From sequence record OL770073.2: a DNA stretch of 64,000 nt; one strand, 5' to 3'. The number at the start of each line of letters is the position of its first letter. Position 1 is the first letter of the stretch. The notes beneath the pieces are model-generated. The model was not told the origin of the DNA. It saw only the letters and a list, made by a program, of their open reading frames with translations, and made no database searches. The translations under genes and the position numbers were made by a program. This DNA is from Escherichia phage vB_EcoM-RPN226. Shown in pieces: positions 3,074 to 61,236 of this stretch.

Positions 3074-3718
3074 TCATTCTAGTAAATCCCAAAGATCTAC
3101 GCTATTTCTTTTTGACTTTTCTCGGTTAGATTCCCAAGTGATTATTTCTAAATTTTTTACGCTTGCTATAATTTCCGGCGGAATTAAATTATCAAATCCA
3201 TATTTGATAGATACCTTGTGATCAAGTTGGTAAGCACCTTCTACGCCGCACAATCCTATTTTATCAGCATTCGGCCATTTTGACCAAATTTTTCTTATTT
3301 TAGCTGACTTAGTTATAGAATGAACTCTACTAGCATATAATGCAAACTCTTTTCTTTTACCAGTCCATCGAGGATGTTTATCGCCTCTTTGCCATGGTCT
3401 GCTTATTCCAGATTGAACTTCCGAATTTTTAATAGCAACTTGTTTAATGCTACATTTTCTACATGCATGTGTGGGTGTTCTATTTAAAAGCTGAATGCTT
3501 CTACTAAATTTAATACCACACAAATCACATTTAGCGTCAACTATTTTATTACTATTCTTTGGCATTAATTCTATTGGAACAGATATTGTATCATGATATG
3601 ATACTTTATATCCCAGAATTGTCGACCACATTTTTGAATGATTTCTTGGTTTTATTGTAACAAACTTAGAAATAATCACTTGTTTCCTCGAGAATAGGGG
3701 CCGAAGCCCCACAATCAA
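3074..3718 (-). CDS. free-standing HNH-family homing endonuclease (inserted between genes 18 and 19)
   Basis: Cys pairs CDLCG...CRKCS (zinc-finger-like) and C-terminal QLDHKVSIKYGFDNLIPPEIIASVKNLEIITWESN resembling an HNH motif; true start may be internal Met near 3631 because the 5' end overlaps the gene 18 terminator hairpin. Confidence 0.6.
   Translation of the reverse strand: MIVGLRPLFSRKQVIISKFVTIKPRNHSKMWSTILGYKVSYHDTISVPIELMPKNSNKIVDAKCDLCGIKFSRSIQLLNRTPTHACRKCSIKQVAIKNSEVQSGISRPWQRGDKHPRWTGKRKEFALYASRVHSITKSAKIRKIWSKWPNADKIGLCGVEGAYQLDHKVSIKYGFDNLIPPEIIASVKNLEIITWESNREKSKRNSVDLWDLLE
3697..3710 (-). terminator. UUCG-tetraloop hairpin after gene 18 (terminator or RNA stability element)
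   Basis: Minus-strand GGGGCTTCGGCCCC directly after gp18 stop; no strong U-run. Confidence 0.45.
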
Positions 3719-56079: not shown

Positions 56080-57112
56080 AAGTCAAGCTCATGTAAAATC
56101 TGCCTAAAACGGGAAACTCTCACTGAGACAATCCGTTGCTAAATCAGCAGTAGCTGTAAATGCCCAACGACTATCCCTGATGAATGTAAGGGAGTAGGGT
56201 CAAGCGACCCGAAACGGCAGACAACTCTAAGAGTTGAAGATATAGTCTGAACTGCATGGTGACATGTAGCTGTTTATCCTCGTATAAATATGAATACGAG
56301 GTGAAACGATGAAATGGAAATTAAGAAAAAGCTTAAAAATTGCCAATTCTGTAGCATTTACCTATATGGTAAGATTTCCTGATAAGTCTTTTTATATAGG
56401 TTTTAAAAAATTCAAAACTATATATGGTAAAGATACAAATTGGAAAGAATACAATTCGTCATCTAAGCTTGTTAAAGAAAAGCTTAAAGATTATAAAGCT
56501 AAGTGGATAATTCTTCAAGTTTTTGATTCTTATGAATCGGCCCTTAAACATGAAGAAATGCTTATTAGGAAATATTTTAATAACGAATTTATTCTTAATA
56601 AATCTATAGGTGGATATAAATTTAACAAATATCCGGATTCAGAAGAACATAAGCAAAAACTTAGTAATGCCCATAAAGGTAAAATCTTATCTTTAAAACA
56701 TAAAGATAAGATACGAGAGAAATTGATTGAGCATTATAAAAATAATAGTAGAAGTGAAGCTCATGTTAAAAATAATATTGGTAGTAGAACGGCTAAAAAG
56801 ACTGTTTCTATAGCTTTAAAATCCGGAAATAAATTTAGAAGTTTTAAATCAGCTGCAAAATTTCTTAAATGCTCTGAAGAACAGGTTAGTAATCATCCAA
56901 ATGTTATAGATATAAAAATAACAATTCATCCCGTCCCAGAATATGTTAAAATAAATGACAATATCTATAAATCATTTGTGGATGCTGCTAAAGATTTAAA
57001 ACTCCACCCAAGTCGTATTAAAGATTTGTGTTTAGATGACAATTATCCAAATTACATTGTTTCATATAAACGGGTAGAGAAGTAGCGAACTCTACTGAAC
57101 ACATTGATGAAG
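56080..57112 (+). other. group I self-splicing intron in nrdD (1033 nt)
   Basis: Non-coding structured flanks (e.g. GGGTCAAGCGACCCGAAACGG...) around an internal ORF; boundaries inferred, not verified by folding. Confidence 0.65.
56309..57085 (+). CDS. intron-encoded endonuclease-like ORF (I-TevIII position)
   Basis: 258 aa ORF wholly inside the nrdD intron; weak GIY-YIG-like N-terminal pattern (FYIGF ... EEMLIRKY); family uncertain. Confidence 0.6.
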   Translation: MKWKLRKSLKIANSVAFTYMVRFPDKSFYIGFKKFKTIYGKDTNWKEYNSSSKLVKEKLKDYKAKWIILQVFDSYESALKHEEMLIRKYFNNEFILNKSIGGYKFNKYPDSEEHKQKLSNAHKGKILSLKHKDKIREKLIEHYKNNSRSEAHVKNNIGSRTAKKTVSIALKSGNKFRSFKSAAKFLKCSEEQVSNHPNVIDIKITIHPVPEYVKINDNIYKSFVDAAKDLKLHPSRIKDLCLDDNYPNYIVSYKRVEK

Positions 57113-58386
57113 TGAACACGTTATTCAGTTCAAATGGACAAACGCCTTTTGTAACAATTACATTTGGTACGGGAACTGACTGGACTGAACGAATGATTCA
57201 GAAAGCAATTCTGAAAAATCGCATTAAAGGTCTTGGTCGTGACGGGATAACTCCTATTTTCCCTAAGCTTGTTATGTTCGTTGAAGAGGGTGTCAATCTT
57301 TATAAAGACGATCCGAACTATGATATTAAGCAGCTTGCTCTAGAGTGTGCAAGTAAAAGAATGTATCCTGATATTATTTCAGCTAAGAACAATAAAGCTA
57401 TCACTGGTTCATCTATTCCTGTTTCTCCAATGGGTTGCCGTAGTTTCTTGGGCGTATGGAAAGATTCGACTGGTAATGAAATTCTTGATGGACGTAATAA
57501 TCTTGGCGTTGTAACACTGAATCTTCCTCGTATTGCATTAGATTCTTATATTGGAACACAGTTCAATGAACAGAAATTTGCCGAATTGTTCAATGAGAGA
57601 ATGGATTTATGTTTTGAAGCATTGATGTGTAGAATTAGTTCATTAAAAGGAGTTAAAGCTACTGTTGCTCCTATTCTTTACCAAGAAGGTGCATTCGGGG
57701 TTCGTCTTAAACCTGATGACGATATAATTGAGTTATTTAAAAACGGTAGAAGTTCAGTGTCCTTAGGATACATTGGTATTCACGAATTGAATATTCTTGT
57801 CGGTCGTGATATTGGACAGGAAATTTTAACTAAAATGAATGCTCGTCTTAAGCAGTGGACTGAAAGAACTGGTTTTGCTTTTAGCTTGTATTCTACACCT
57901 GCTGAAAACCTGTGCTATCGCTTCTGTAAACTTGATACCGAAAAATATGGAAGTGTAAAAGATGTTACTGATAAAGGTTGGTACACTAATAGTTTCCACG
58001 TTTCAGTAGAAGAAAATATTACTCCGTTTGAAAAGATTTCTCGCGAAGCCCCATATCATTTCATTGCGACAGGCGGTCACATTTCTTATGTTGAACTTCC
58101 TGATATGAAAAATAACCTAAAAGGTCTTGAGGCTGTATGGGATTATGCTGCACAACATTTAGATTATTTTGGTGTTAACATGCCAGTAGATAAATGTTTT
58201 ACGTGTGGAAGTACCCATGAAATGACTCCTACTGAAAACGGATTTGTTTGTTCTATTTGTGGAGAAACTGATCCTAAAAAGATGAACACAATAAGAAGAA
58301 CATGCGGATATCTTGGAACTCCTAGCGTTGTTCCATGGAATTTAGGTAAAATGAAAGAAATGGTAAAACGAGTAAAACATGCATAG
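57113..58386 (+). CDS. nrdD: anaerobic ribonucleoside-triphosphate reductase NrdD, exon 2
   Basis: Continues exon 1 frame; C-terminal Cys cluster CFTCGSTHEM...CSICG and glycyl radical region. Confidence 0.75.
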
Positions 58387-59209
58387 GTATTATATAATTT
58401 ATAAAATAACAAATATAATTAATTCAAAGGAATATATCGGTGCGCATAGCACCGATAACATAAATGACGGTTATATGGGGTCAGGAACATTGATTCGTGC
58501 CGCTTTATTAAAATATGGTAGAAAAAATTTTAATAAAGAAATTTTACATGTTTTTGATAATGAAAAACAAATGTATGATAAAGAAGCTGAACTTGTAACC
58601 GAAGAGTATTGTCTAAAAGAAAATACATATAATATTAAACCTGGTGGAAAAGGTGGAACTGCTTATGAACAGACACTTGAACATCGCCACAAAAATAGTT
58701 TAGCAAATAAAGGTAAAAAGAAAACGGCAGAAACTAAAATAGCTATTTCACGTGCTTTAAAGAAATATAAACGTACGCCAGAGCATCAAGCAAATTTAAA
58801 TAAAGCTGTAAGAATAGCTATGAAGCGAAAAGATGTTAGAAGTAAATTAACTGGAGAGCGTTCTGAGAAAGATAAATTATCTATATCAAACGGTGTTAAA
58901 AAATATTACAATTCTTTGAGCGAAGAAGAACGTGAACTGCATCGCAAGCGAATTATTGAAGGTAAAAAGAATTCTCCCATGTCATTGGAATCTAGACAAA
59001 AGCTTTCAAAAGCTTTAAAAGGACTTCAAGTTGGTTCAAAAAATCCAATGTATGGAAAAATTTCTCCAACTAGCAAAACCGTTTCAGTTGACGGTATTAA
59101 ATATGATTCAATTAAAAAGTGCTCAAATGCCATAAAAGTTTCTAGACATCTTATACTAAAACGCTGTAATTCTACTGATGAAGCTTGGAAAAATTGGATA
59201 TTATTATGA
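58379..59209 (+). CDS. GIY-YIG homing endonuclease, SegB paralogue, between nrdD and nrdG
   Basis: YIIYKITNIINSKEYIGAHSTDNINDGYMGSG nearly identical in pattern to SegB N-terminus at 32964; NUMOD-like C-terminal repeats. Confidence 0.8.
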   Translation: MHRYYIIYKITNIINSKEYIGAHSTDNINDGYMGSGTLIRAALLKYGRKNFNKEILHVFDNEKQMYDKEAELVTEEYCLKENTYNIKPGGKGGTAYEQTLEHRHKNSLANKGKKKTAETKIAISRALKKYKRTPEHQANLNKAVRIAMKRKDVRSKLTGERSEKDKLSISNGVKKYYNSLSEEERELHRKRIIEGKKNSPMSLESRQKLSKALKGLQVGSKNPMYGKISPTSKTVSVDGIKYDSIKKCSNAIKVSRHLILKRCNSTDEAWKNWILL

Positions 59210-59676
59210 ATTATGACAGAATATACCCGTGTTGCTTTGTGAATGGCCCTGGATGCAGGACCGTTCTTTTCGTCACAGGTTGTTTGCATAAATGCGAAGG
59301 GTGTTATAATAAATCAACATGGAATGCTAGAAATGGCGTTCCATTCACTGGTGAAACACTAGAACAATTAATTGAATGTTTGAATAATGATTATATAGAA
59401 GGATTAACTATAACTGGAGGAGACCCTCTCTATCCTGATAACCGAGATGTTGTTCATTGCATCGTTCAAACAGTAAAAAATCTTTATCCGAATAAAAGCA
59501 TTTGGTTGTGGACAGGATATAAGTTTGAAGATATTAAACAACTAGAAATGCTTAAATATGTTGATGTTATTATTGATGGGAAGTATGAGAAAAATCTTCC
59601 GACCAAAAAGCTGTGGCGAGGATCAGATAATCAGCGACTTTGGTCAAATACCGACGGGGTGTGGAAACATGATTAA
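59206..59676 (+). CDS. nrdG: anaerobic RNR activating protein (radical SAM)
   Basis: Start at MNYDRIYP gives 156 aa as T4 NrdG; Cys cluster CLHKCEGCYN. Confidence 0.85.
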   Translation: MNYDRIYPCCFVNGPGCRTVLFVTGCLHKCEGCYNKSTWNARNGVPFTGETLEQLIECLNNDYIEGLTITGGDPLYPDNRDVVHCIVQTVKNLYPNKSIWLWTGYKFEDIKQLEMLKYVDVIIDGKYEKNLPTKKLWRGSDNQRLWSNTDGVWKHD

Positions 59677-59790: not shown

Positions 59791-60006
59791 ATGTATAAAT
59801 TTCGTAAAGGTTTAGCTGATTTTCTTACAACTGTAACGTTCTTTTTGTTTATGGCAGTTGGAGCTATTTTCCTTATTCCTTTTATTGCTATATTTTTCGT
59901 GATTAGCTTAATTTCTCCAGAAAAAGGCTTATCTTCTAGCGAGTTTAATGAGCGTCTGGATAAAATTACTAACAAACTGAATGCTGTTCTTGATAAAAAG
60001 GCTTAA
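59791..60006 (+). CDS. small membrane protein
   Basis: ATG at 59791; single long hydrophobic helix. Confidence 0.5.
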   Translation: MYKFRKGLADFLTTVTFFLFMAVGAIFLIPFIAIFFVISLISPEKGLSSSEFNERLDKITNKLNAVLDKKA

Positions 60007-60008
60007 TT

Positions 60009-60320
60009 ATGATTAGTTTTGAGCAGTACGTGGTAGAGAGTTGGAAGGGTTTTGATATGTTCGGTAATGACTATTATTTCTATGAATGTAGTCTAAATCC
60101 TAGTTTTTGGGCTGGACGAGAACGAGAACTTGAAGAAATTAATAACCGTGCTGAATTGTTAGGTGAATTACCTACGGTTTATTTTACCTTTGATGCATCT
60201 GGATTTGTTATCCAGGTTTATTTTCCTGAAGAAAATTCTGGCGATGATTCTGTTAACCCGCCATACTGGGCTTATCAAGGAATTATTTCTCGTGGAACAA
60301 AACTCGAACTTAAAGAATAA
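60009..60320 (+). CDS. hypothetical protein
   Basis: 103 aa ORF. Confidence 0.5.
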   Translation: MISFEQYVVESWKGFDMFGNDYYFYECSLNPSFWAGRERELEEINNRAELLGELPTVYFTFDASGFVIQVYFPEENSGDDSVNPPYWAYQGIISRGTKLELKE

Positions 60321-60615
60321 GATTGAAGTCTATGGAATTCCAGATGAAGTAGGTCGTTGTCCTGGATGTCAATCAGTTACAAAACTTCTAAAGGAGCTCA
60401 ATGCTCCTTTTACTTTCTATAAAGTTCTTACAAATAATGGTAAGATTGAGTATGATCGTCCACTGATTGTATCTCTTGCTAAACGAGCTGGATTCACATC
60501 TCTTAACATTCGTTATCCAGTCATTTTCATCAATGATTCTAGACAAAAGAACATTAAACACTTCAAAGAAACTCTCATTTCACTTGGATATGATAGAGAT
60601 ATCATAGAAGACTAA
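60287..60615 (+). CDS. glutaredoxin-like redoxin (NrdH-like), probable GTG start
   Basis: KIEVYGIPDEVGRCPGCQSV with CxxC active site; no in-frame ATG, candidate GTG at 60287 overlapping upstream gene. Confidence 0.5.
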
Positions 60616-60618
60616 GAT

Positions 60619-60640
60619 GGGCCCTCTGGGCCTTTCTTTC
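60619..60640 (+). terminator. terminator-like hairpin
   Basis: GGCCCTCTGGGCC followed by TTTCTTTC. Confidence 0.5.
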
Positions 60641-60713
60641 TCACATTCTGTATATTACCATTCTAAGATATCGTTCCCTTCTTATCATTCCCTAAAATAA
60701 TTTTCACAAAGTT

Positions 60714-60744
60714 GTTTACAAGAAGTTTAAACTGTGGTATTATT
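60714..60744 (+). promoter_or_regulatory. T4-type early promoter
   Basis: TTTTCACAAAGTTGTTTACA...TGTGGTATTAT; upstream block identical to that at 31380. Confidence 0.6.
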
Positions 60745-60942
60745 AACATATGAATTGCCTTTGAGGATTTGATATGGTTGATAAAGAGATTAAAAAGGAT
60801 CAGTATTATCGTGTTAACGGACATATTGTTATTGTTACAGCAGTAGATGATCTAGATGTTCATTATACTGTACTTAAATGGAATAAACAGATGATTTGCG
60901 ATCGTGCTGTATTTAGTTCAGTTGCTAAGGAAATTAAACTCC

Positions 60943-61236
60943 ATGGGTAAAACGTATCGTCGTAAAGACTTGAAAGTTCGTGATTATGACTATTTCGGAA
61001 AGCGTAAAGCTCCTGATGGTGTAAGTCATAAAGATATGGTTGAAAACATTTTTCGCTCTGATAAATGGCGTAGAATGAAAGGTATTGATTCAGAAGTTAA
61101 AGATGAGCTAAATCGCCAATTACGTGGTGAAGTAAGAAAGTTGAAAAAATCAGTTTACATTGACGATGATTTTGATTACAATACTTCTCAACGAGTTGCT
61201 AAGCGTAAATCAAACGAGTGCTATCGTTACAGCTGA
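60943..61236 (+). CDS. hypothetical basic protein
   Basis: Start at ATG 60943 (MGKTYRRKDL); lysine/arginine-rich. Confidence 0.5.
   Translation: MGKTYRRKDLKVRDYDYFGKRKAPDGVSHKDMVENIFRSDKWRRMKGIDSEVKDELNRQLRGEVRKLKKSVYIDDDFDYNTSQRVAKRKSNECYRYS

Follow-up and report, generated by a model that had tools for sequence, protein, structure and literature searches.

The closest described relative of the gene studied here is nrdH of bacteriophage T4 (T4p072, NP_049686.1, UniProt P07077; reference genome NC_000866), which lies directly after gene 55.8 and encodes a protein of 102 aa. The curated translation begins at a GTG codon (VKQNKIEVYG...), the only canonical start available to nrdH in T4, and among the 13 curated T4 genes in that 4-kb stretch nrdH alone has no ATG start. 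The T4 record notes that nrdH 'has glutaredoxin activity'. Mass spectrometry of infected cells has revealed T4 NrdH, a product classed there as 'early RNA, late protein' (PMC9697503, supplements 4 and 6). A literature search found no ribosome-profiling or N-terminomics paper for T4, and a paper on ribonucleotide reductases (RNRs) in phages does not discuss the T4 nrdH start.

Two further systems invite comparison. T4 also encodes the glutaredoxin NrdC ('T4 thioredoxin'; PDB 1AAZ, 1ABA, 1DE1 and 1DE2), whose active site reads CVYC. Bacterial NrdH-redoxins, such as E. coli NrdH, the reductant of class Ib RNR, reportedly carry the motifs C(V/M)QC and WSGFRP. Classical glutaredoxins have a C-terminal glutathione-site motif, G-G-x-d-D.

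The window analysed here is a stretch of 64,000 nucleotides from Escherichia phage vB_EcoM-RPN226 (OL770073.2), a T4-like phage (Tequatrovirus). Megablast of 59900..60750 returned 638 T4-like phage records, the best of which were Tequatrovirus genomes at 99.4% identity. We conclude, with a probability of about 0.9, that nrdH of this phage starts at GTG 60292 behind an AAGGA Shine–Dalgarno (SD) sequence and encodes a 107-aa CPGC protein of the glutaredoxin fold, paralogous to NrdC.

A T4-type nrdH with a predicted GTG start

The window gene is an ordinary T4-type nrdH, since the GTG start is already annotated in the T4 reference. Its product is 99% identical to T4 NrdH over residues 8–107 (tblastn against T4, AF158101 and NC_000866). 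The two genes are alike in their GTG start, their AAGGA SD and their place after nrdG and 55.8 and before a terminator, which is followed in both phages by the 55.6/55.5 genes. In a DNA alignment, T4 AAGGAATAGTT-GTG-AAACAA is homologous to AAGGAATTATTTCTC-GTG-GAACAA of the window; the two phages thus share a homologous module, AAGGAAT...GTG(A/G)AACAA. The closest relatives, Ge15 and 236Ecol005PP, have the same 324-nt GTG gene annotated at equal length. The window differs from T4 in that its nrdH has five more N-terminal codons (15 nt; VEQNSNLKNK versus VKQNK), its SD stands 10 nt from the GTG, against 6 nt in T4, and 55.8 and nrdH are separated by an additional gene of 103 aa, whose 3′ end shares 29 nt with the beginning of nrdH (Table 1).

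The preliminary description of this locus had drawn attention to a 150-aa open reading frame (ORF) at 60163..60615 (+ strand) whose frame holds the redoxin region KIEVYGIPDEVGRCPGCQSV and within which the upstream gene, 60009..60320, terminates; both points hold. It had also described the ORF as lacking an in-frame ATG, apart from a single Met far upstream. None occurs between the upstream stop and the domain, but ATGs are present at 60193 and 60244. No GTG is found at 60287, where the description had placed one; the GTG in this frame occupies 60292–60294, 43 codons into the ORF (60292 − 60163 = 129), so the product has 107 aa plus the stop codon rather than about 109 aa, and the overlap measures 29 nt rather than 34 nt. 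The non-ATG start overlapping the preceding gene that it suggested agrees with the curated T4 nrdH annotation, and the observation is real apart from these small errors in coordinates. The nrdH frame, which is +1 relative to the upstream gene, offers four start candidates, GTG 60163, ATG 60193, ATG 60244 and GTG 60292. The first three lie deep within the upstream gene, and between 60292 and the conserved domain there is no further in-frame candidate. The upstream gene stops at TAA 60318–60320, 26 nt past the nrdH GTG.

Table 1 Features around nrdH in the window
Feature	Position	Strand	Remarks
nrdG	59206..59676		Fer4_12, E=3e-48; mechanical ORF from 59185
71-aa membrane-protein gene	59791..60006		T4 55.8 equivalent, PHROG 1930
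Upstream 103-aa gene, PHROG 2749	60009..60320	+	Absent from T4
Mechanical ORF, 150 aa	60163..60615	+	C-terminal two thirds contain KIEVYGIPDEVGRCPGCQSV
In-frame ATGs, judged unused	60193–60195, 60244–60246	+	Weak SD, substitution phase, stops in relatives
Shine–Dalgarno sequence AAGGA (predicted)	60277..60281	+	10 nt 5′ of GTG
nrdH GTG start (predicted)	60292..60294	+	Homologue of the annotated T4 start
nrdH coding sequence, 107 aa + TAA (predicted)	60292..60615	+	Orthologue of T4 nrdH / NP_049686.1
Dual-coding overlap, 29 nt	60292..60320	+	Upstream gene and nrdH
CPGC active-site motif (Cys23, Cys26)	60358..60369	+	Aligns with CVYC of 1AAZ
Pro76, thioredoxin-fold proline ahead of strand 3	60517..60519	+	Invariant in alignment A2
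Intrinsic-terminator-like hairpin, GGGCC-CTCT-GGGCC and T-rich tail	60619..60643	+	Directly 3′ of nrdH

Start sites in related phages

We compared the start region across 14 annotated GenBank phage loci and 42 IMG/VR loci (58 sequences overall), listing for each locus every ATG, GTG and TTG from the upstream in-frame stop to the IE(I/V)YG anchor together with the energies of anti-SD pairing. A homologous GTG lies 15–30 nt before the anchor in all 29 sequences from Tequatro-, Mosig-, Gapriver-, Dhaka- and Kanagawavirus, the window and T4 included. For 12 of them (the T4 type, AV114, the ECML-359 type, L031 and L047, the L numbers being our locus identifiers), this GTG is the sole canonical start, and an in-frame stop lies just upstream. 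The more distant genera (26 sequences) have an ATG 1–4 codons before IEIYG, or seven codons before it in Enterobacter phage PG7. These distant orthologues, from T4-like phages of Klebsiella, Salmonella, Enterobacter and Acinetobacter and from Krischvirus, belong to the same family and occupy the same neighbourhood, and the codon of the window at the position of their ATG is AAG (60319–60321). An ATG found in Kanagawavirus corresponds to ATC (60274–60276) in the window. The clear ATG starts of relatives are thus not present here, and the case that the preliminary description had named as speaking against its observation does not arise. The preliminary description had proposed comparing the start region with related phages: the combination of SD, GTG and overlap recurs in every related genome examined, which shows that the arrangement is not due to chance.

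The SD of nrdH is kept in relatives as AAGGA, AAGGAG or AAGGTGG. Pairing with the anti-SD amounts to −5.4 kcal/mol in the window type, −6.1 kcal/mol in the T4 type and −8.0 to −8.6 kcal/mol for the AAGGAG and AAGGTGG types. The GTG outdoes every upstream in-frame candidate in the window, and nearly all of those in relatives, in the strength of its SD. These values bear on the idea that a longer NrdH, of 123 or 140 aa, is made from ATG 60244 or ATG 60193. Both codons are in frame with nrdH and no stop intervenes in the window, and some database records, such as that of Shigella phage ESh15, place the start at the counterpart of ATG 60193. However, pairing reaches merely −1.0 kcal/mol at ATG 60244 and −2.4 kcal/mol at ATG 60193, and ATG 60244 is missing in L015 and L022, although the NrdH of L015 is 99% identical to that of the window. 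In relatives, moreover, in-frame stops isolate the stretch before the GTG: this is so in Gapriver-, Dhaka- and Kanagawavirus loci, and the sequences cut off in this way include T4, AV114, ECML-359, L031 and L047. These stops, together with the substitution phase described below, led us to reject the longer isoforms, which we regard as very improbable.

A start closer to the domain fares no better. Near-cognate initiation, for example at ATT 60322, would give a 97-aa protein that begins like the distant orthologues, which start M-I-E-I-Y-G, and ATT immediately follows the codon that corresponds to their ATG. Yet no SD precedes this ATT in the window (cttaaagaataag) or its counterpart in T4 (gtgaaacaaaataag), and the position homologous to the ancestral ATG is not the ATT but the AAG before it. 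The conserved SD and GTG would also stay unexplained. We rejected this start and give it even less credence than the longer isoforms.

Initiation at GTG 60292 accommodates these comparisons. Ribosomes would bind AAGGA at 60277–60281 and initiate at the GTG, both elements being embedded in the last codons (Q-G-I-I-S-R-G) of the upstream 103-aa gene. The ancestral ATG before IEIYG, kept in the distant relatives, would have become AAG here, with the start shifted upstream to the GTG. The product would be a 107-aa thiol–disulfide oxidoreductase that has the glutaredoxin fold, uses CPGC as its active site and is paralogous to T4 NrdC. That this phage actually initiates at GTG 60292 is probable from comparative sequence evidence, despite an SD spacing longer than that of T4 and the 140-aa form given in some records.

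Coding signature before and within the overlap

We determined the phase of substitutions between the window and three relatives, ATK47 (L003), L015 and L022. Between 60163 and 60291, 13 of 17, 9 of 10 and 12 of 14 substitutions, respectively, fall at third codon positions of the upstream gene, equivalent to second positions in the nrdH frame. Over the same interval, peptide identity to ATK47 is 41/43 in the upstream frame versus 28/43 in the nrdH frame, whose peptide ahead of the GTG includes ...ILAMILLTRHTGLIK. Substitution phase and peptide identity together indicate that the nrdH frame has no protein-level conservation before 60292, which counts against the 123-aa and 140-aa isoforms.

The overlap itself contains no substitution in any of the three comparisons, and its flanks diverge by about 12–20% in those with ATK47 and L022. 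Zero substitutions across these 29 nt are what dual coding predicts. The conserved C-terminal YQGIISRG codons of the upstream gene carry the SD and GTG of nrdH. Within them, the codon for Arg, Cys or Ser (CGT, TGT or AGT) always ends in T; this position is synonymous for the upstream protein and supplies the second letter of the GTG.

The upstream gene and its relation to nrdH

The upstream gene belongs to PHROG 2749 (E=1.8e-48). Members are found in 526 phage records, apparently always adjoining nrdH, and are 38–47% identical across genera. The protein has no Pfam or NCBIfam match, its family profile found no sequence match in the PDB, and a Foldseek search of viral models returned only uncharacterised phage proteins and a fusion protein of Pectobacterium phage PM2, described below. 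T4 and AV114 lack the gene, and their deletion allele keeps the SD and GTG.

We compared this allele with the window (59940..60300 versus L001, T4, 3540..3700, minus strand). In this allele, common to T4 and the Mosigvirus AV114, the 103-aa gene has been deleted, and the 3′ end of 55.8 runs into the AAGGAAT...GTG module. The 55.8 protein thereby has an altered C-terminus, which reads LSKE in T4 and LDKKA in the window. Shigella phage CT01 retains only the last 24 codons of the upstream gene.

The preliminary description had also raised translational coupling and a frameshift. In the first case, GTG 60292 would be used mainly by ribosomes fresh from the 103-aa gene, through termination and reinitiation; this would need back-scanning of about 26 nt from the upstream TAA and would hold the two proteins at a set ratio. 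The SD and GTG do lie inside the upstream coding sequence, the genes overlap by 29 nt, and an overlapped layout of this kind is kept in five genera. In T4-type phages only 2 nt separate the stop of gene 55.8 from the GTG, which is a classic geometry for coupling. Against this, the GTG has a good SD of its own, and the predicted local RNA structure that a translating ribosome could unwind is no better than that of shuffled sequence (z = −0.49). The upstream partner also changes, from gene 55.8 in T4 to the PHROG 2749 gene here, with the SD and GTG unchanged, so no specific partner is required; nor can coupling be obligatory, since T4-type genomes without the upstream gene keep both elements. 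Judged from these layouts, a contribution of coupling at nrdH is plausible, but we consider it unlikely that coupling accounts for most use of the GTG. The same folding result (60255–60345) led us to reject an RNA structure that sequesters the SD or GTG.

A programmed +1 frameshift would make NrdH a C-terminal extension of the upstream protein, as in the 199-aa fusion of PM2. The frame relation is the right one, nrdH being +1 relative to the upstream gene, and in PM2 the two parts share a frame under the single annotation 'glutaredoxin nrdH'. However, the overlap contains no slippery or shift-prone motif, its sequence and length vary between genera, and T4-type phages carry nrdH without the upstream gene. 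Both parts are carried by 543 records. Within the 60 best matches of the fused query, PM2 (two accessions) alone matched in a single frame, the other 58 having the parts in two frames. Protein clusters of the upstream family (n = 26) are all 92–105 aa long, which leaves no cluster of fusion length. The PM2 junction, finally, is a run of seven A residues, to which only one A would have to be added to return to the two frames seen elsewhere. We thus find no support for a programmed frameshift; we rejected the fusion on account of the two-frame relatives, the lack of a slippery motif and the cluster lengths, and its probability is as slight as that of the ATT start.

The PM2 record deserves separate mention. 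There (KF835987; L033 / L057 458..1057), the PHROG 2749 gene and nrdH form one frame encoding a 199-aa 'glutaredoxin', and the extra A at the junction would bring back both the usual GTG start and the overlapping stop. The single frame reflects either an error in sequencing the homopolymer or a fusion specific to this lineage. If the latter, it might be a genuine 'Rosetta stone' fusion, the PHROG 2749 protein and NrdH forming a functional pair whose co-expression the overlap enforces. We consider this doubtful, more so than predominant coupling; if true, the small protein would be a new redox partner or target of a phage glutaredoxin in the anaerobic ribonucleotide reductase cluster.

NrdH as a glutaredoxin-fold paralogue of NrdC

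The 107-aa protein matches the Pfam glutaredoxin family PF00462 at 23.8 bits, just above the cut-off of 22.9, as do 11 of 13 relatives; the score is borderline, and the whole 150-aa ORF reaches 22.5 bits. It also matches PHROG 22, 'thioredoxin domain' (E=5e-16), and the family profile finds T4 glutaredoxin 1AAZ in the PDB (E=2.4e-8, residues 3–85 of 87). Cys23, Cys26 and Pro76 are invariant in our alignment A2, and Pro76 aligns with the proline of MPQVF in T4 glutaredoxin. The window protein and NrdC thus belong to the same fold family, with CxxC and proline aligned, but are distant paralogues: the window protein has CPGC in place of CVYC, lacks the C-terminal I-G-G-F-D, and has a 10-residue N-terminal extension and a longer C-terminus. 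We assign its first ten residues (M-EQNSNLKNK) to an extension because strand 1 begins at residue 2–3 in NrdC and in the distant orthologues. The glutathione-site GG motif is absent from the window protein, which has ...FINDSRQKNIKHF... where T4 NrdC has HIGGFDQL and the phage Phi1 orthologue HIGGYKEL; its glutathione dependence, and hence its reductant, is uncertain.

Despite the shared name, this profile points to a glutaredoxin-fold paralogue of T4 NrdC and not to a bacterial NrdH-redoxin. The two have in common that they are small CxxC redoxins of the thioredoxin superfamily encoded near RNR genes. However, the window protein has CPGC rather than C(V/M)QC and no WSGFRP, and its neighbours are the class III genes nrdD and nrdG, the latter encoding the activase, with no nrdI, nrdE or nrdF adjacent. 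In an NCBIfam scan at E<=0.1, no NrdH-redoxin model matched; the sole match, to TIGR02196 of the YruB type, scored 16.1 bits, below the cut-off of 88.55. The position of the gene near the anaerobic reductase genes nrdD and nrdG suggests that its redox function may be connected with them.

Annotation and flanking features

The biological weight of the start is small, as GTG starts with short gene overlaps are routine in T4-type phages. Its value lies in annotation: it fixes the correct nrdH start at 60292 (107 aa), it explains conflicting public records with 107-aa GTG, 140-aa ATG and 199-aa fused forms, and it identifies 'NrdH' as a glutaredoxin paralogue resembling T4 NrdC rather than a bacterial NrdH-redoxin. 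Present annotation is inconsistent. In ESh15 (ON528725; L058 685..1107), a 140-aa 'anaerobic glutaredoxin' is called and the upstream gene left out; elsewhere the gene is entered in its 107-aa GTG form, and in several records nrdH is left as 'hypothetical protein'.

A terminator is annotated in phage ATK47 at the place that corresponds to the hairpin behind nrdH (Table 1). The hairpin is followed (region 60619..60743) by a site at 60715..60743 that resembles a T4 early-type promoter (TTTACA, 17 nt, TATTAT, with TG upstream), and a 55.6 homologue lies downstream of this site at 60774..60950. On the other side of the locus, a 276-aa ORF (58379..59209) stands just before nrdG and overlaps its ATG by 4 nt; T4 carries mobC at this place. 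With its NUMOD3 motif and a weak DNA-binding domain of the I-TevI type, the ORF looks like a seg or GIY-YIG-type homing endonuclease. A 258-aa ORF is situated between two large ORFs, upstream of this endonuclease-like gene (56309..57085 and 57112..58386); this arrangement may correspond to the group I intron of T4 nrdD and its I-TevII, likewise a 258-aa protein.
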